A DNA stretch of 64,000 nt from Candidatus Aenigmatarchaeota archaeon (lineage in GTDB: Archaea > Aenigmatarchaeota > Aenigmatarchaeia > GW2011-AR5): positions 211,111 to 275,110 of the forward strand of contig JACQID010000006.1 of NCBI GenBank assembly GCA_016198685.1, read 5' to 3'. The notes beneath the pieces were generated by a model, which saw nothing but the letters and a program-made list of their open reading frames with translations, was not told the DNA's origin and did not search any database. This document shows, in pieces, positions 15,778-43,715 of the stretch. The translations under genes were made by a program, and so were the position numbers. Position 1 is the first letter of the stretch, and each line of letters opens with the position of its first letter.

Positions 15778-16809
15778 ATGACGGTCTCCAAGAAGATGAT
15801 AAATATGGTAACAAAAAAACAATTAGACAGGGCGCATGACCTTGATTTCCGCAAGACATTGGATGTCAAGGATTTTGTTCCAGTCAAAGGTCATGATTTT
15901 TCCAAAAAGATGAACTTGAAGGAGTTTATAGATTCCTTCAAGACGCTCGGCTTTCAAGCGACCAACCTTGGCATAGGAGTGGATATTGTAAGAAAAATGC
16001 GCAAAGAGAAAGTCAAGATAATACTTACTTTTACCTCCAATCTCACGACATCTGGCATAAGGGATGTAATAACATTTCTGGCTAAAAACAGGCATGTTGA
16101 TGTGCTTTGTACGACAGGCGGGGGAATAGAGGAAGATATACTCAAGTGTTATGATCCATTTGTTCTAGGTCACTTTGACAAGGACGCAAAAGAGCTTTAT
16201 GGTAAAGGCATGAACAGGACAGGGAACATTTACGTTCCGGATTCAATATATGCAAAATTTGAAAAATTCACATTGGCGCTTCTTGAGAAATTTTACAAGA
16301 GGCAAATAGCAGAAAACAAGATATTGACAGGCATAGAGCTTGTCAAGGAAATGGGCAAGGAAATAAACAACGAGTCGTCTTTCCTTTATTGGGCGTACAA
16401 AAACAACATTCCGGTCTTTTCGCCGTCAATACTTGACGGCGCCATTGGTGATATTGTATGGTTCTTCAAGCATCAAAATCCTGATTTCAAGTTCGATTCT
16501 TCTGAAGACATATATCAGATGAATGACATGCCGCTTGACGCCAAAGACACAGGCGTCATCGCCCTTGGAGCCGGAGCTTCCAGACATTATGTCCTTAACG
16601 CCCATATTTTCAGGGGTGGCACAAAATATGCTGTGTTTATTTCCAGCGGCACGGAATGGGATGGTTCCACATCCAGCGCCAAGCCTGATGAGGCTTACAC
16701 ATGGGGAAAAATCAGGTTGTTCGAGCCTTTCTACAAGAACTCTGTTGAAGTCGCTGGGGACGCGACGATACTGTTTCCGCTGATAGTCGCTGGGGCATTT
16801 CTTGATTAA
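15778..16809 (+). CDS. dys: Deoxyhypusine synthase
   Basis: GFQATNLG, TTGGGIEED, DGAIGD, EAYTWGKI (catalytic Lys), DATILFP. Confidence 0.95.
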   Translation: MTVSKKMINMVTKKQLDRAHDLDFRKTLDVKDFVPVKGHDFSKKMNLKEFIDSFKTLGFQATNLGIGVDIVRKMRKEKVKIILTFTSNLTTSGIRDVITFLAKNRHVDVLCTTGGGIEEDILKCYDPFVLGHFDKDAKELYGKGMNRTGNIYVPDSIYAKFEKFTLALLEKFYKRQIAENKILTGIELVKEMGKEINNESSFLYWAYKNNIPVFSPSILDGAIGDIVWFFKHQNPDFKFDSSEDIYQMNDMPLDAKDTGVIALGAGASRHYVLNAHIFRGGTKYAVFISSGTEWDGSTSSAKPDEAYTWGKIRLFEPFYKNSVEVAGDATILFPLIVAGAFLD

Positions 16810-17406: not shown

Positions 17407-17982
17407 TTACCTAATCCCTATCGATTGGAGCGTTTCCACGACGCGAGTCATGTCTTTCTTGGCGAAGATGAATATGGTGTCTGTGTAGCAGCTGTACGTT
17501 TCTTGTATGTTGATTCCGCGCTCGGCTAAGGCCGAACAGACGTATGCCATGAAGCCCGTATTGTTCTCTATTTCCGCCGGGCTGATTATTCTGACCTCCA
17601 GCATGTTCTCGTTCTTGCGCATGCATGGTATATCCATCGGCTCTTCGGTTATCACGGTTGTTGCGTTGCTGCCTTTTATCACGTGAAGATAATCCGTTTT
17701 CCTCTCCATGTTGCTGGATTTCAGTATGTAAACATTCACGCCCGTTTTTATCTCAAGGCGGCTATTTTTCAGCAGGCTTATGATGTTTTTGCCGTCGGAA
17801 GTTGCCTCGTCGCCAAAACGCCTTGCAGCCACTATGACGGCGTCAAAATTCTTCACGTTCAGCTCTTGCTGCGCCGCACGGGCGAGTGAAGAGAAGTTGA
17901 CAAAGCCCCTCTTCAGGGCCCAGACCAGATACGGTCTTTCCCTTATCCATGCATGAACGCGCTTCGCTATAGGCTTTTCCAT
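17407..17982 (-). CDS. N-terminal HTH-like + C-terminal ACT domain protein (putative amino-acid-sensing regulator)
   Basis: VNFSSLARAAQQEL helix pair; ACT-like GFMAYVCSALAERGINIQETYSCYTDTIFIF. Confidence 0.75.
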   Translation of the reverse strand: MEKPIAKRVHAWIRERPYLVWALKRGFVNFSSLARAAQQELNVKNFDAVIVAARRFGDEATSDGKNIISLLKNSRLEIKTGVNVYILKSSNMERKTDYLHVIKGSNATTVITEEPMDIPCMRKNENMLEVRIISPAEIENNTGFMAYVCSALAERGINIQETYSCYTDTIFIFAKKDMTRVVETLQSIGIR

Positions 17983-18011
17983 GTTTATCTTATGTCAAAA
18001 AACTATTTAAA

Positions 18012-18029
18012 ATGTCCTATTTTGGACAT
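18012..18029. promoter_or_regulatory. Palindromic operator candidate in divergent promoter
   Basis: ATGTCC-TATTTT-GGACAT flanked by TATA-like TATTTAAA and TTTATA. Confidence 0.45.
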
Positions 18030-18070
18030 GAATTATTTATATTGTCCGGGGGATAGAAATGCTTCGGTGA

Positions 18071-18784
18071 ATGAAATGGAAAGGGATCATCAAAGAAGAC
18101 TCGAAGATTATCGGCATAAGTATAGAGTATGGTCACACGTATCTTGGAGACCCGCCAATACAAGAAGCAGGAATAGCGATTGCGAAAGACATTGAAGACA
18201 TTGCCACAAACACTGGTGTTGCCGTTTCAAGGCTCGTGCTCATAGACGACTATAACCGTTCTGGGGGAGGCAAGGAAGAATACGCTAGTTTTTATTCCAA
18301 GCATCTTGAATTCTTCGGAATGAAACCGACACATATAGTATGGGAGGGAGATTGCGTCGGGCCTGCAAAAACACTTCTCGATTCTTTGCGTGAAGTTCCT
18401 CCTGGGGCAAATCTTTTGGGTAAATATTTTAAAGGTGAGAATATGTATGTTTCGGATCCGAGCGGAAAAAGAATAAAGGTAAGACATGGCATGCATTATC
18501 AATGCCCGGTTCTTGCTGCAGTTTCAGAGTTGTCACAATTGGGGGTTGTGGACGTTCCTTATCATGCGACTGGGGAGCTGCGCCATTATAAAGGGAAGGC
18601 CGCTGTTGTTGTATTGCCTATGCAATATCGTCCCGTGGAAGAAAATGCCAATAGGCTAATTTCTCTGTTATATGGAGATGAACATGCGATACACAGGTTT
18701 TTCTTTGATGGCCGACCTTCAAAGGACTACGTTGCGTCATGGCTTGTCCAAAATGAGGTGATAAATGATGCAAGGATACCTTGA
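18071..18784 (+). CDS. Orphan HUP/class-I aaRS-like Rossmann protein (SCO2522-like by recalled motif pattern)
   Basis: ISIEYGHTY, LVLIDDY, CPVLAAVSELSQLG, LPMQYRPVE; 20-bp overlap with next gene. Confidence 0.55.
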   Translation: MKWKGIIKEDSKIIGISIEYGHTYLGDPPIQEAGIAIAKDIEDIATNTGVAVSRLVLIDDYNRSGGGKEEYASFYSKHLEFFGMKPTHIVWEGDCVGPAKTLLDSLREVPPGANLLGKYFKGENMYVSDPSGKRIKVRHGMHYQCPVLAAVSELSQLGVVDVPYHATGELRHYKGKAAVVVLPMQYRPVEENANRLISLLYGDEHAIHRFFFDGRPSKDYVASWLVQNEVINDARIP

Positions 18785-19832
18785 ATGCGTAAAGTGTAAA
18801 AAGAAATATGAAGAATCGATAAAAACTGTTACTTGTATCCACAATAAATATTACGATTATCTTGAGTACAAGAATGTAGCGCCGGCAAAAAATACAGTGA
18901 CTCTGGGGCAAGGCAATACCCCCATGGTAAAATTAAAAAAGACGGGAGCTATGATTGGATGCCAAGAATTATATGTTAAGGACGAGAGTAAGAATCCGAC
19001 AGGCTCATTCAAGGATAGGGAGAGTGCTGTATTGATAGACAAGGCGGTTGATTTTGGTATAAAGGATGTTTTTGCAATATCGTCCGGCAATGCCGCAATA
19101 TCCCTTTCAGCATACGCAAAGGTGGCTGGAATACGTTGCACATGCTATATCCCCGATCATGCATCCGAAGGTAAAAAGAAAATGATACAGCTTTTTGGAG
19201 GAAAAATAGTGGAAATGGCAGGAACATATGAAGTGGTTTATAGAAAAATTCTGGACGAAAATATTCCGGGGTGGAATTGCACCTTAAACCCGTTCAAATC
19301 CGCAGGAAGCAAAAAAATCGCTTGGGAAATATACGAAAAGGTAGGGATGCCGGATAAGATTATCGTTCCGTGCGGTAATGGATCTAATCTTGCAGGCATA
19401 TGGTCAGGCTTCAAGGAAATCGCGCAGATGAAAAAAATCGCGAAGCTTCCACAAATGATAGGAGTGCAGGTCGAAGGAGCTTCGCCGCTCAAAAGCGCCA
19501 TGGAAAGTGGAAATGATTATGAGATTTTAAGCAACATTGCTGATTCCGTTGCTGAAGGTATCGTAGCAACCGAATCGTACTCTTCGCCAAAAGCATTGCG
19601 TGCATTGAAGGAATCAAAGGGTTCTGTATTAGAGGTGAATGAACGTGAGATAAAGAGCGCCTTAAGGCATATGTTAATTGAGGAATCCTTGGTAATGGAG
19701 CCTACGTCTGCAGCTGCATTTGCAGCCGTCTGGAAGCTCAACATTTCCGGTAAAAAAGTCATAGTTTTGCTGACGTCTAGTGGGACAAATACTCTTTCTG
19801 AGATATCGGATATTGTTTTGGGTTCGCGCTGA
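18765..19832 (+). CDS. thrC: Threonine-synthase-like fold-type II PLP enzyme
   Basis: KDESKNPTGSFKDR (PLP Lys), SSGNAA, VPCGNGSNL, EPTSAAAFA. Confidence 0.8.
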   Translation: MMQGYLECVKCKKKYEESIKTVTCIHNKYYDYLEYKNVAPAKNTVTLGQGNTPMVKLKKTGAMIGCQELYVKDESKNPTGSFKDRESAVLIDKAVDFGIKDVFAISSGNAAISLSAYAKVAGIRCTCYIPDHASEGKKKMIQLFGGKIVEMAGTYEVVYRKILDENIPGWNCTLNPFKSAGSKKIAWEIYEKVGMPDKIIVPCGNGSNLAGIWSGFKEIAQMKKIAKLPQMIGVQVEGASPLKSAMESGNDYEILSNIADSVAEGIVATESYSSPKALRALKESKGSVLEVNEREIKSALRHMLIEESLVMEPTSAAAFAAVWKLNISGKKVIVLLTSSGTNTLSEISDIVLGSR

Positions 19833-19865
19833 TAATATTAAAAACACTGCCAAAGAAGTGATACC

Positions 19866-21527
19866 ATGACGCTCGAGAAATTCCGGGAAGAGTCGAGGCA
19901 AATAGCAGGCAATTACAATACGCTTTTGGAAACGCCTCCAAAGGAAATAAAGGCGGATTTGGCCATGCCGTGCTTCTCGCTTGCAAGGGAACTTCGCAAA
20001 GCGCCGCAGGAAATAGCCGTTTCGCTCGCAAAAGAATTTTCAAAAAACAAATTTACCTTGATAAAAGAAATCAAGGCTGAAGGGTCATATGTGAATTTTT
20101 ACGCCAACTGGGACAAGCTATCGGAAGAAATAATAACAAGTGCGTCCGAAAAAGAGTATGGCAAAGGAAATGCAATGGGCAAGGTTATTGTGGAGTTTGC
20201 GCATCCGAATACGCACAAGCTCTTCCATATAGGGCACTTAAGGAACATAATTACCGGCGAATCCGTAGCGCGAATGCTAGAGTATTCGGGCGTGAAAGTC
20301 ATACGGGCAAACTACCAGGGAGACGTGGGCTTGCATATAGCAAAATGTTTGTGGGCCATTGGCAAGGAAGACGTAAAAAAAATAAAGAATCTTGACGATA
20401 AGATACGGTTCCTTGGCAAGGCTTATGCAAAAGGCAGCAAGTCATACGAAGAAGATGAAAACGCGAAAAAAGAAATAATAGAGATCAATGCGAAAATATA
20501 CAAGAAAGACCCGGGCATAATGAAGCTCTGGCAGGAAACCCGCCAGTGGAGCCTGGATTATTTTGCAAGAATATATGCGAGGGTCTATACAAGATATGAC
20601 AGGCTGTTTTTCGAATCCGAAGTTGCTGGAAAAGGCCTCAAGATATCCCAGCATGCGCTGAAGAAAGGGATACTCAAAGAGAGCGATGGCGCGGTAATAT
20701 TTGACGGCGAATCGCATGGTCTTGATAAGCGCGTATTCATAAACAGCCTGGGCTTTCCGACATATGAAGCCAAAGAGCTTGCCCTCGCCGAGCTAGAATT
20801 TACCGAGTTTGGGAAAATAGACAAGTGCATACATGTAGTCGGGCCTGAACAGGCCAGCTTCTTTAAGGTGACGTTCAAGGTCGAAGAGCTCCTCGATCAG
20901 AAATACAAGGATAAACAGTTTCATCTGGCTTATGGCTGGGTAAAATTACGGGACGGCAAGATGTCCTCACGGCTCGGCAACGTCATAGAAGGCGAGTGGC
21001 TGCTTCAAGAGCTCAAGAAGGCCATACTAGGGAATTATGTTGCAAAAGAGGATCACGATGAAAAGCTCAAGGAAGAGATAGCGGAGGCGGGCGCAATCGG
21101 GGCGGCAAAGTATTATTTCCTCAAGTACGGGACTGCATCCGAAATTTCCTTTGACATAAAGGAAGCGGCGTCGCTTGAAGGTGATACAGGCCCGTACCTG
21201 CAGTATACTCATGCACGGGCTGCATCTGTCCTGAGAAAATCAGAGAAGACGCCACAACCAGGACCGGTTTCGGAGAATGAGACAGAGCTTGCGCGCAAGC
21301 TTGCGGAATTCCCGGAGTCTGCCCGGAAAGCTGCAGAAGAATTGAAGCCGAACATCGTGGCAAATTATGTTTTTGAACTCGCATCGATGTTCAATGCCTA
21401 TTATCATGAAGAGAAAATAATAGGATCGCAAAACGAGGCCCAGAAACTTGCATTGGTCGGAGCTGTCAAGAACGTTATAGGAATTTCCCTAAATCTTCTG
21501 GGGATAAAGCCGCTCGAAAAGATGTAA
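19866..21527 (+). CDS. argS: Arginyl-tRNA synthetase
   Basis: HIGH (FHIGHLRN), KMSSR, GPYLQYTHARAASVLRK. Confidence 0.97.
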   Translation: MTLEKFREESRQIAGNYNTLLETPPKEIKADLAMPCFSLARELRKAPQEIAVSLAKEFSKNKFTLIKEIKAEGSYVNFYANWDKLSEEIITSASEKEYGKGNAMGKVIVEFAHPNTHKLFHIGHLRNIITGESVARMLEYSGVKVIRANYQGDVGLHIAKCLWAIGKEDVKKIKNLDDKIRFLGKAYAKGSKSYEEDENAKKEIIEINAKIYKKDPGIMKLWQETRQWSLDYFARIYARVYTRYDRLFFESEVAGKGLKISQHALKKGILKESDGAVIFDGESHGLDKRVFINSLGFPTYEAKELALAELEFTEFGKIDKCIHVVGPEQASFFKVTFKVEELLDQKYKDKQFHLAYGWVKLRDGKMSSRLGNVIEGEWLLQELKKAILGNYVAKEDHDEKLKEEIAEAGAIGAAKYYFLKYGTASEISFDIKEAASLEGDTGPYLQYTHARAASVLRKSEKTPQPGPVSENETELARKLAEFPESARKAAEELKPNIVANYVFELASMFNAYYHEEKIIGSQNEAQKLALVGAVKNVIGISLNLLGIKPLEKM

Positions 21528-22013
21528 TCAGGGTATTTTTCTCACAGTTCTTTCCACTAAATCGAAAAGAAAAGCTTGACCCCTTCCAATGCGATCCAAT
21601 AGGCCATTTATGGCTAATTCAGCTCTCAGATAAAAAGTGGCAAAATCTTCGCATACATCCTCATGAGAAATGACTACAACGGCATCGGCGTTGCGCCCCC
21701 TGCTTTCTATATTGCTCATCAAACGACGCTGGTAACTAACGTTTCCTTCGGTGTAACCCTCGTTAATGCCCTGGCTTCCAGCAAGATAATCGAGCGTCTC
21801 AACGGAAGACGCACCGAGTTCCCCAGCTACTATTCTTGCGGTCTCTTGTGCTCTTCCAAGGGGCGATGTGATCAAGCGAATGCTGCCTTCGCCTATCTGA
21901 TTCTTTAGATATACGCCAAGAGCTTGGGCCTGTTCAACGCCCAGTTCGCTTAATCCGGACTCGTAATTTCTCGAGAGCGGGTCGCCGTGCCTCGCAATTG
22001 CAACATACCTCAT
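21528..22013 (-). CDS. Histidine phosphatase (SixA/PGM-like)
   Basis: ARHG, TSPLGRAQET, ISHE. Confidence 0.85.
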   Translation of the reverse strand: MRYVAIARHGDPLSRNYESGLSELGVEQAQALGVYLKNQIGEGSIRLITSPLGRAQETARIVAGELGASSVETLDYLAGSQGINEGYTEGNVSYQRRLMSNIESRGRNADAVVVISHEDVCEDFATFYLRAELAINGLLDRIGRGQAFLFDLVERTVRKIP

Positions 22014-23590: not shown

Positions 23591-23818
23591 TTACACCTTC
23601 TTCAGTTTTTCAGCAACGAAGTTTATAACAGCTTCGTCTACGGGTATAGCGAAGGACTTATTGTATCTTCTTTCGCCTTCCTTCGTGAAGAAGCCTCTGC
23701 TTAGCGATATGAAAACATTTTCGCCTTCTTCAGTCTTGGCTTTCTTCCTGGCGACTTCCAGAAACTTGTTCTCGCCAAATTTTATTTCCTCGGATGTTAT
23801 GGTTTCAAATTCTACCAT
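23591..23818 (-). CDS. Small protein, possible PC4/PUR-like ssDNA/RNA-binding fold
   Basis: Beta-hairpin pattern FLEVARK..FISLSRGFF..KSFAIP then a helix; GGAGGT SD upstream. Confidence 0.55.
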   Translation of the reverse strand: MVEFETITSEEIKFGENKFLEVARKKAKTEEGENVFISLSRGFFTKEGERRYNKSFAIPVDEAVINFVAEKLKKV

Positions 23819-23895
23819 TTGTGCCTTACCTCCTTGTGTTTTGTTTGCTGAAAATTAGAGGGCATCGACTTATTTAAAGATATTTCATTGCCATC

Positions 23896-25344
23896 CTAAA
23901 AAACTATTTCAATGTCTGAAAGCTTGCCGTCCTTGAACAAACGAATAAGATGATTGTTCGTATCCGCTATCAAAAGAGCATCGCCAAGGCTAATTACATC
24001 ATTGGGTTCATAAAGCGGAAGGTAATCGCATTCCGTATCGCCTATAGTGCAAATCTTGGAGGTTTTTCTTCCTATTAAAGCAGACACAGTTCGGGTTCTA
24101 AGGTCAGCTTCCCTGATTGCGTGGTTGTAGGTGTCGGCGATATACACCTTTCCGTTGGAATAATCAACTCCAAGTGGATGCTGCAAAAGAGCCTTGTCAA
24201 ATTGTCCGTCGGCAAAGCCGAACACAAACAGGCCTTTTCCTATCAATGTTTCGACAACTCCGGATGAAAAATGGACGCGACGCAAGGCGGATACCTCGCT
24301 GTCAACAAAATACAGGAATTCTCCGTCAGTTGCAAGACCCGATGGCTGTGCAAGGAAGGCAGAATGTCTTGGCCCGTCGATTATGTTCTCGGCCGAAGTT
24401 CCGGCGTAAGATACAAGCTGCCGGGTTCTTGTATCCATTTCCCATATCTGGTGGGAGCCTGCCATGGCTATATAGAGTTTGTTATTGCGAAACAGGACAT
24501 CCCAAGGAGAATTGAGTTTCCCTTTGTGCGGCTCGCCCTTCGATTGTTCGCCGGTGCCGGCAATCGTTTCAACCGTTTTTCTCTTCAAGTCTATGAGTCT
24601 TATTGCATGATTCTCAGTATCTGCGACGTATATACGGTCATCGGCGATCGCAACTCCCTGCGGCCTGCTGAACATGGCATTGGCAAAGCTTCCATCCATG
24701 AGGCCTCCTGCGATAGAACCTATTTCGTATAGGACTTTTGCTTTTGTGCCGTGCAATTCCGTGACAAGAATTCGGTTATGGTTAGAATCTGCTATCGCAA
24801 GAATGCCGTCTTTATAATCAATTTTTCCGGGGAATGAAAGAACACGTTTCGTTTCTTTTGGGCTAGAAGTTATTGAAATCTTCTCGGCGGCGATATCCCT
24901 TCTTTTGAGAAGTGCGGTTATCATGACATCGATGTCCTGCAATTGGCCCTCTCCCGATCGTTTATATGCAATTTTCCCATCAGGCCCTATTATTACTATT
25001 GTAGGCCATGCAGTAACCCTGTAAGCATTCCATATATGGTGATCTTTGTCCACGATGACCGGATGCGTTATTTCGTACCTTTCGACTGCCGACTGTATGT
25101 TATTCACATCATTTTCGTTTTCGAATTTTGCGGAATGGACGCCTATGAACACAACCGGTTGCCCGGCATAATCTTCTTCGAGCATCTTAAGGTCCGGTAA
25201 CACATGGATGCAATTGATGCAGCAGTAAGTCCAGAAGTCAAGGACCACGACATGGCCTTTGAGGGCTTTCATGCTGAGAGGCCTATCACTATTGAGCCAC
25301 TCGCCTGTTGCGGGAAATTCCGTAGCGGAAGAAGAAAACAACAT
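23896..25344 (-). CDS. Thioredoxin-like + NHL-repeat protein (NHLRC2-like)
   Basis: DFWTYCCINC; repeated ADxxNHxI and PxG motifs. Confidence 0.9.
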   Translation of the reverse strand: MLFSSSATEFPATGEWLNSDRPLSMKALKGHVVVLDFWTYCCINCIHVLPDLKMLEEDYAGQPVVFIGVHSAKFENENDVNNIQSAVERYEITHPVIVDKDHHIWNAYRVTAWPTIVIIGPDGKIAYKRSGEGQLQDIDVMITALLKRRDIAAEKISITSSPKETKRVLSFPGKIDYKDGILAIADSNHNRILVTELHGTKAKVLYEIGSIAGGLMDGSFANAMFSRPQGVAIADDRIYVADTENHAIRLIDLKRKTVETIAGTGEQSKGEPHKGKLNSPWDVLFRNNKLYIAMAGSHQIWEMDTRTRQLVSYAGTSAENIIDGPRHSAFLAQPSGLATDGEFLYFVDSEVSALRRVHFSSGVVETLIGKGLFVFGFADGQFDKALLQHPLGVDYSNGKVYIADTYNHAIREADLRTRTVSALIGRKTSKICTIGDTECDYLPLYEPNDVISLGDALLIADTNNHLIRLFKDGKLSDIEIVF

Positions 25345-34973: not shown

Positions 34974-35068
34974 TGCGGGGGGCAGGGTTTGAACCTGCGA
35001 AGGCACTAAGCCACGGGATTTCTTCACGGTCTTAAGTCCCGCCCCTTTGGCCGCTCGGGAACCCCCGC
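34974..35068 (-). tRNA. trnL: tRNA-Leu(TAA) with 11-nt intron (35020-35030) at position 37/38; CCA not encoded
   Basis: GCGGGGG/CCCCCGC acceptor, CGGGA-CTTAAG|A-TCCCG anticodon arm, long variable arm, GGTTCAAACCC. Confidence 0.93.
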
Positions 35069-43589: not shown

Positions 43590-43715
43590 CGCCGAGAGCA
43601 GGATTTGAACCTGCGCGAGCACAAGGCTCACACGCTATCGGAGGCTTCATATTTTCCATACCGGAAAAATGACCATTCCAGGCGTGCGCGTTGGACCAAG
43701 CTCCGCCATCTCGGC
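43590..43715 (-). tRNA. trnS: tRNA-Ser(GGA) with 39-nt intron (43637-43675) at position 37/38; CCA not encoded
   Basis: GCCGAGA/TCTCGGC acceptor, CACGC-CTGGAA|A-GCGTG anticodon arm, variable arm GAGC/GCTC, GGTTCAAATCC. Confidence 0.93.

Follow-up and report, generated by a model that had tools for sequence, protein, structure and literature searches.

HisZ, MshC, GluQRS and the cyclodipeptide synthases (CDPSs) are stand-alone proteins derived from aminoacyl-tRNA synthetases (aaRSs), each of which opened new biochemistry. GluQRS and MshC retain both ATP motifs and activate their amino acid by adenylation. CDPSs are aaRS-derived Rossmann proteins without HIGH and KMSKS that use aminoacyl-tRNA instead of ATP, and HisZ is a non-catalytic aaRS paralogue of class II fold that regulates HisG (ATP phosphoribosyltransferase). 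Here we describe a putative counterpart derived from arginyl-tRNA synthetase (ArgRS), encoded by an orphan gene in a 64,000-nucleotide stretch of Candidatus Aenigmatarchaeota DNA (contig JACQID010000006.1 of assembly GCA_016198685.1, positions 211,111 to 275,110 of the forward strand; hereafter the window). The genome that holds the window (G000) measures 0.93 Mb and is 93.7% complete. The orphan, which we call mini-ArgRS, precedes a gene for a threonine synthase (ThrC)-like enzyme dependent on pyridoxal 5'-phosphate (PLP) and then a full-length argS, and a putative regulator gene diverges from the three. ORF calls bore out this four-gene layout as given in a preliminary description of the window, including the 20-nt overlap between orphan and ThrC-like gene and the 33-nt gap between the latter and argS (Table 1). 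We give roughly even weight to the reading that the locus is an arginine/tRNA-Arg-centred module consisting of mini-ArgRS, a dedicated PLP enzyme and an active full-length ArgRS. Neither an ArgRS-derived stand-alone paralogue nor the orphan/ThrC-like/ArgRS trio was described in the literature searched, and a review covering duplicated aaRSs and aaRS-like proteins, published in 2022, nowhere mentions ArgRS.

The structure of the orphan was predicted with AlphaFold2 (AF2) from a 22-sequence alignment, as single-sequence prediction was unusable (predicted local distance difference test, pLDDT, 38). The resulting model (pLDDT 92) folds as a class I aaRS Rossmann core with five parallel strands. 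In an exhaustive structure search (VIA), the first five matches were all ArgRSs (Z 17.8, 17.5, 17.2, 16.5 and 15.8), aligned over 187–202 residues; the catalytic domain of 1bs2 superposed at Z 17.8 with a root-mean-square deviation of 2.9 Å over 187 residues, and 4q2t and 2zuf are comparable representatives (Z 17–18). The top 35 entries were class I aaRSs or their paralogues throughout, with GluRS, CysRS, GluQRS (Z 14.8), MetRS and MshC (Z 13.4) following the ArgRSs. Foldseek likewise placed ArgRS on top (5.6e-6). The preliminary description had proposed a class I synthetase-derived Rossmann/HUP core, which these results uphold. Its comparison with CDPSs found less support, the fold being closer to that of ArgRS: CDPSs are of the TyrRS/TrpRS type, and TyrRS and TrpRS reached only Z 9–10 against the model, compared with 15–18 for ArgRS, with no CDPS chain within the top 50 structural matches.

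Sequence comparisons point in the same direction. The orphan family profile cross-matches genuine ArgRS genes (E about 3e-5), and hhalign pairs orphan residues 69–117 with the ‘FD..ES’ segment of ArgRS (E 4e-4). A weaker, structurally coherent hhalign alternative (E 0.11) equates IEYGHTY with the strand-1 VEFAHPN, LIDDYN with Y.ND.G and VVLPxxY with VVGxEQ. The ArgRS segments ‘VEF..PN’ (strand 1), ‘Y.ND.G’, ‘FD..ES’ and ‘VVG.EQ’ are recognisable in the orphan. No match was obtained in the ESM Atlas or in Pfam and NCBIfam, including their ArgRS models PF00750 and TIGR00456. One public homologue bears the tag PF28097.1, an entry missing from the Pfam copy used. A PDB sequence search with the orphan profile returned only designer PPR repeats, and the family search returned a 663-aa protein (P0013); both were treated as spurious repeat matches.

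What the orphan has lost relative to ArgRS is extensive. It is a single domain without the ArgRS N-terminal domain, Ins-1 or the DALR anticodon-binding domain. The HIGH position reads E[QH]-like across the family and is unconserved, there being no conserved HxGH in the alignment, and most members stop directly past strand 5, without KMSKS. What remains is strongly conserved: E19, H22, Y24, D59, E92, C145 and P183 show no or almost no variation among 26 archaeal and bacterial members. The motifs singled out in the preliminary description (SIEYGHTY, LIDDY, C..LAA..L..LG and LP..Y..VE) are real and coincide with these family-invariant residues. ArgRS binds arginine through a strand-1 Glu, an Asn, a Tyr...Asp pair and a Gln (yeast numbering); by the weak profile alignment, E19 and Y143 of the orphan match, the Asn position is occupied by Y24 and the Asp position is hydrophobic. 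We read the orphan family as a new ArgRS-derived paralogue family within a proposed arginine/tRNA-Arg-centred module.

Among described proteins, GluQRS (YadB) and MshC are likewise stand-alone or shortened class I cores with non-translational roles; in contrast to them, the orphan family has lost the ATP motifs and appears to stem from ArgRS. CDPSs offer the best functional analogy for a tRNA-dependent use, as both groups have lost HIGH and KMSKS, although the orphan carries a conserved Cys rather than Ser. HisZ is comparable in that it, too, is an aaRS paralogue that lacks an anticodon domain and partners a metabolic enzyme encoded nearby; it differs in being an established non-catalytic regulator of class II fold, the orphan being of class I.

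The second member of the pair is a fold-type II PLP enzyme (PALP 2e-67 over residues 45–336, Pfam) that is 35–40% identical to Aquifex and Bacillus ThrC. It shares with threonine synthase the PLP lysine in ‘SFKD’ (K83, invariant in 124 clade sequences) and, in part, the N..NP.[RK].EG.K loop. It nevertheless falls below every ThrC cut-off in NCBIfam (TIGR00260, 144.2 vs 167.1; others, 193 vs 303 and 190 vs 358) and has an N-terminal Cys ribbon. Across the 124 sequences a clade signature replaces canonical motifs, with KDRG becoming KD[RK]ES, STGNTS becoming SSGNAA and TIATAIRIGNP becoming SxAEGIxAxESYSSPK, changes that bring three extra conserved glutamates near the cofactor site. The canonical phosphate motifs STGNTS and NS.NP.R.EGQKT are thus not kept (P0002 reads SSGNAA and NCTLNPFKSAGSKK), and position 178 is R or K in the clade. 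By sequence, the solved structures nearest to it are those of threonine synthases (1e-44). Public relatives number more than 1100 at E 1e-40 or better; the source-named members among the best 120 trace to bacteria of the Candidate Phyla Radiation (CPR) and to a single Woesearchaeota archaeon, mostly under the annotation ‘threonine synthase’.

The genomic context does not support that annotation. The preliminary description had noted that homoserine dehydrogenase (hom) and homoserine kinase (thrB) were missing from the window, and this extends to the whole of G000, in which no Homoserine_dh and no thrB above the cut-off (best 46 bits vs 168) were found. GHMP kinases occur there only as a three-gene cluster on another contig, and the ThrC-like gene is the single PALP gene. 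Since hom and thrB are absent, threonine synthesis is not the expected role. That the PLP enzyme differs from canonical ThrC, as proposed earlier, is borne out by the scores, the clade motifs and the missing pathway genes together.

Other non-canonical ThrC-like proteins were observed in 85 of the 371 genomes of the phylum (loci L022–L042). Their motifs are of two types, DFLFPTGSFKDRG..NPYFLEGTKT and NPTGSFKDRG..GDYxYRxEGxKS, and four matches of this sort carry an in-frame stop codon.

Distribution was assessed in 371 Aenigmatarchaeota genomes and a sample of 401 Patescibacteria (CPR), along with a single-sequence search of 1.84 billion representative proteins, which returned 22 orphan relatives. 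The family is confined to CPR and DPANN organisms with reduced genomes, and no member was found in phage and plasmid collections. Four of the 371 Aenigmatarchaeota, from three families, have the orphan (G000, G003, G141 and G276), and the special ThrC-like clade occurs in exactly those four (44–100% identity), while 85 others have only ThrC-likes of ≤38%. Conversely, three of the 401 Patescibacteria carry the ThrC-like clade (G524, G542 and G559, of which the closely related G524 and G542 are counted as one lineage), and in all three an orphan homologue lies beside it (E 1e-15 to 8e-11). The orphan family as a whole was found in 13 CPR genomes. The expectation that the orphan co-occurs with a PLP enzyme was thus borne out in 4/4 archaeal genomes holding the orphan and in 3/13 CPR genomes; no fusion of orphan and PLP enzyme was seen among the loci found. 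The preliminary description had read the pair as a two-enzyme module making a modified amino acid or dipeptide, possibly from Arg-tRNA, and had named three findings that would count against it: a fold other than Rossmann/HUP, homologues never found with PLP enzymes, and a canonical ThrC with hom and thrB elsewhere in the genome. Given the fold, the co-occurrence and the non-canonical ThrC, that reading survives all three, its substrate and product being conjectural.

The more distant CPR members keep other company. At L146, L148, L149 and L150 the orphan homologue is paired with a ∼390-aa protein, and the 673- and 703-aa proteins encoded at L153 and L154, in two genomes, carry the orphan-like domain at their C-terminal end. 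Partners of distant members (515 aa and ∼390 aa) had no Pfam, NCBIfam or PDB match.

The third gene of the trio encodes an apparently functional ArgRS (TIGR00456, 362 bits vs a cut-off of 262) with HIGH and KMSSR intact. The order orphan, ThrC-like, ArgRS is kept on one strand in all archaeal loci (G000, G003, L051, G141 and G276); ArgRS abuts the pair convergently in G524 and G542 and lies 3 kb off in G559. In G649, which is without the ThrC-like clade, ornithine carbamoyltransferase (OTC), orphan and ArgRS follow one another in that order. That argS belongs to a conserved neighbourhood, as proposed earlier, is supported: it adjoins the pair in the archaeal loci, lies within 0–3 kb of it in the CPR trios, and is thus a neighbour in each lineage whose contig extends far enough to tell. 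The linked ArgRSs are catalytically intact by their motifs and fall into at least three clades of the ArgRS tree, without forming a monophyletic group. We therefore rejected their spread as one transferred cassette, and the intact HIGH and KMSSR led us to reject a dead linked ArgRS complemented in trans by the orphan.

Two ArgRS genes each are present in G524, G542, G559 and G276, while the linked gene is the sole ArgRS in G000, G003 and G649. The module-side ArgRS in CPR is of the type found in Aenigmatarchaeota and the second copy of a typical bacterial type; the only ArgRS of G649 is of the archaeal-like type, so that either CPR copy may be the later addition. In the ArgRS tree, long branches (∼1.0) lead to the linked enzymes of the G000 clade and to that of G276, and in the G000 clade the pocket motif has changed from SDG..Y...D.A to SLG..YEAKELA, whereas G141 and the CPR linked enzymes retain the usual SDG..Y..D. 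As a side observation, the bacterial-type ArgRS of G559 (L090, G559:C6:50111-51712) has TFPN at the HIGH site and the module-linked copy keeps HLGH; judging from these motifs, the bacterial-type copy may be degenerate.

Genes for tRNA-Arg and arginine catabolism also occur around the module. In G542, five tandem tRNA-Arg genes (CCG, CCT, TCG, TCT and GCG) lie directly upstream of an arginine deiminase (ADI)-ArgRS segment that converges on the pair, and G524 has the same five-gene array at 80% identity (Table 1); in both genomes it supplements a dispersed tRNA-Arg set. Four of the five array genes encode CCA. The dispersed genes of G542, four in number, encode none and share one uniform acceptor stem, which differs from the stems of the array. 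The orphan of the archaeon G141 is directly preceded by a gene for tRNA-Arg(TCT), with deoxyhypusine synthase (DHS) on the far side of it. ADI was considered as an obligatory component and rejected, being absent from G000, G003 and G141.

On the proposed reading, mini-ArgRS would be a descendant of the ArgRS core that kept the Rossmann pocket and lost both ATP signatures and all tRNA-anticodon modules, and its partner would be a dedicated, translationally coupled enzyme of the ThrC family with a remodelled active site that gained conserved glutamates. Mini-ArgRS would then be unable to adenylate; its old pocket for the amino acid and 3' end would instead bind arginine itself or the arginylated terminus of a tRNA-Arg that the adjacent ArgRS provides. 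Catalysis may involve the invariant Cys145 and His22 together with the acidic residues, and mini-ArgRS and the PLP enzyme would jointly transform or transfer that amino acid. The analysis shows the fold, the motif losses, the invariant residues, the gene coupling, the co-occurrence and the association with ArgRS, tRNA-Arg and arginine-catabolic genes, whereas substrate, use of tRNA, chemistry and product are inferred. Binding of arginine or of an arginylated 3' end by mini-ArgRS working with the PLP enzyme would be the most economical mechanism.

Several observations weigh against this reading. The residue equivalences between orphan and ArgRS are taken from profile alignments that are weak (E 4e-4 and 0.11), by which the site matching the guanidinium-binding Asp is hydrophobic throughout the orphan family, and the family proteins are slightly acidic, which does not suggest binding of the tRNA body. 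Ten of the 13 CPR genomes with an orphan family member lack the ThrC-like clade, and four of these ten pair the orphan with the ∼390-aa uncharacterised protein. The contig of G276 is just 3.8 kb long, so that its binning is uncertain. In G000, ADI is missing altogether and the vicinity of the module contains no tRNA-Arg gene. Lastly, genomes without the pair also have DHS and argS divergently adjacent, as an ancestral arrangement. The archaeal modules may thus owe their position to one old insertion, or to a local argS duplication, followed by many losses, rather than to repeated selection for a position beside argS.

Of the alternatives, the one that survives best is a pseudo-enzyme comparable to HisZ, in which the orphan would be a non-catalytic subunit that senses arginine or presents a substrate, and regulates the PLP enzyme or other partners in arginine or amino-acid catabolism. 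We consider this unlikely, even though several features speak for it: the loss of both ATP signatures and all tRNA modules, the precedent of HisZ itself, the ADI and OTC neighbours in CPR genomes, the acidic net charge of the orphan and its alternative partners in other genomes. Against it, the guanidinium-binding Asp of ArgRS is not retained, and the seven invariant residues, among them one Cys, one His and three acidic residues placed where strands end, more closely resemble a catalytic or tight ligand site.

A distinctly doubtful alternative joins an antimetabolite to immunity: the pair would make an arginine analogue or ArgRS inhibitor, and the linked ArgRS would be an insensitive copy, in some CPR with its own tRNA-Arg set. 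Genes for aaRSs within biosynthetic clusters often serve self-resistance, and the presence in four genomes of a second ArgRS gene in addition to that beside the pair would fit such an arrangement, as would the long branches (∼1.0) of the linked enzymes in the G000 clade and G276 and the altered arginine-pocket motif of the G000 clade. Against this, the linked ArgRS is the only copy in G000, G003 and G649, no substitution is common to all linked ArgRSs (G141 and the CPR enzymes keeping SDG..Y..D), and the loci offer just two candidate biosynthetic genes, with no exporter seen.

It is very unlikely that mini-ArgRS works like MshC or GluQRS, as an ATP-dependent ligase that would adenylate an amino acid produced by the PLP enzyme and attach it to an acceptor. 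Both proteins are indeed among its structural matches, at the Z scores given above, but they keep the two ATP motifs, whereas in the orphan family the HIGH site is E[QH]-like and unconserved and KMSKS is missing from most members. That the PLP enzyme is simply a threonine synthase, next to its neighbours by chance and with an orphan of no significance, is highly improbable: the nearest solved structures (1e-44) and the ‘threonine synthase’ labels given to clade members in public sources favour it, but G000 has no hom or thrB, the protein scores under every ThrC cut-off, the motif changes are conserved clade-wide, and the trio recurs in archaea and bacteria.

If the arginine-centred module is taken one step further, CPR and DPANN organisms may share an arginine-based, tRNA-dependent pathway in which a dedicated ArgRS charges the tRNA, the ATP-independent core captures the ester and the PLP enzyme transforms it. 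This extension is tentative, and we regard it as rather unlikely; equally tentative is its corollary that the captured ester would be arginyl or a precursor aminoacyl group, with some of the ArgRSs served by their own tRNA-Arg set. Were it correct, the pathway would represent a new indirect route to an aminoacyl-tRNA or a new class of aminoacyl-tRNA-dependent transferase, one independent of CDPS, Fem or LanB-type enzymes. More generally, the orphan family is rare and confined to genome-reduced CPR and DPANN organisms, which retain few non-essential genes. Should mini-ArgRS act on Arg-tRNA, it would be a new type of tRNA-dependent enzyme; in the sensor case, arginine charging would be coupled through it to the amino-acid metabolism of episymbionts that subsist on scavenged arginine.

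The divergent gene encodes a protein with ACT_7 (6.4e-9) and DUF7523 (2.4e-7) domains in Pfam, in agreement with the ACT domain assigned to it earlier. The 88-bp spacer that it shares with the operon is ∼97% identical between the window and L051, while the flanking proteins are merely 70–87% identical, and for this reason the spacer is taken to be under constraint. The palindrome ATGTCC-N6-GGACAT, which the preliminary description had pointed out in this spacer, is present; its occurrence is not significant by itself: one match was found where 0.06 would be expected, and shuffling the sequence 100 times produced a match in 6 cases. The regulator is 86% conserved in L051 and is restricted to the G000 clade. 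A 32%-identical DUF7523-ACT homologue was observed in a divergent position beside argS at L057 3515-4078 (G346), in a genome without the pair, which suggests a regulator of argS. Judged by this gene neighbourhood, the ACT protein may regulate argS and not the pair, to whose control it had been assigned earlier. In G000, the divergent ACT protein probably controls the entire argS-containing operon through the conserved operator.

Table 1. Coordinates of the module in the window and of the tRNA-Arg arrays in two CPR genomes.
Feature	Coordinates	Strand	Description
DUF7523 + ACT_7 putative regulator	17407..17982	−	191 aa; divergent from operon; Pfam
Shared promoter/operator spacer	17983..18070		TATA-like TTTAAAA and TTTATAT; palindrome ATGTCC-N6-GGACAT at 18012-18029
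Orphan, putative stand-alone ArgRS-derived catalytic core (mini-ArgRS)	18071..18784	+	237 aa; fold and profile matches
ThrC-family fold-type II PLP enzyme, distinct clade	18765..19832	+	355 aa; PALP; N-terminal Cys-rich ribbon
Full-length arginyl-tRNA synthetase (argS)	19866..21527	+	553 aa; TIGR00456
G542 tRNA-Arg array	L086 859-1370 (G542:C20:3858-4369)		next to ADI-ArgRS
G524 tRNA-Arg array	G524:C1:309871-310416		80% identical to G542 array; 2.5 kb from ADI

Base composition did not set the pair apart. It had been described as AT-richer than its flanks; GC across the pair is 0.39–0.455, and dips of equal depth occur at 15800-16400 and 23600-24000, which makes the difference weak and not distinctive.

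Elsewhere in the window, two tRNA genes were each recognised by a single tool: a tRNA-Leu(TAA) at 34974-35068 by ARAGORN, missed by Rfam, and a 126-nt tRNA at 43590-43715 by Rfam, probably intron-bearing and missed by ARAGORN. The DHS gene lies at 15778-16809 and identifies the source of the window as archaeal. In several Aenigmatarchaeota families (loci L066, L058, L055 and L056), argS lies divergently next to DHS; where the mini-ArgRS/ThrC-like pair is present, it sits between the two. On the other side, a gene of the histidine phosphatase superfamily (161 aa; 21528-22013, − strand) is convergent with argS and adjoins its stop codon, and a 34% homologue of its product is encoded at the equivalent position in L051.

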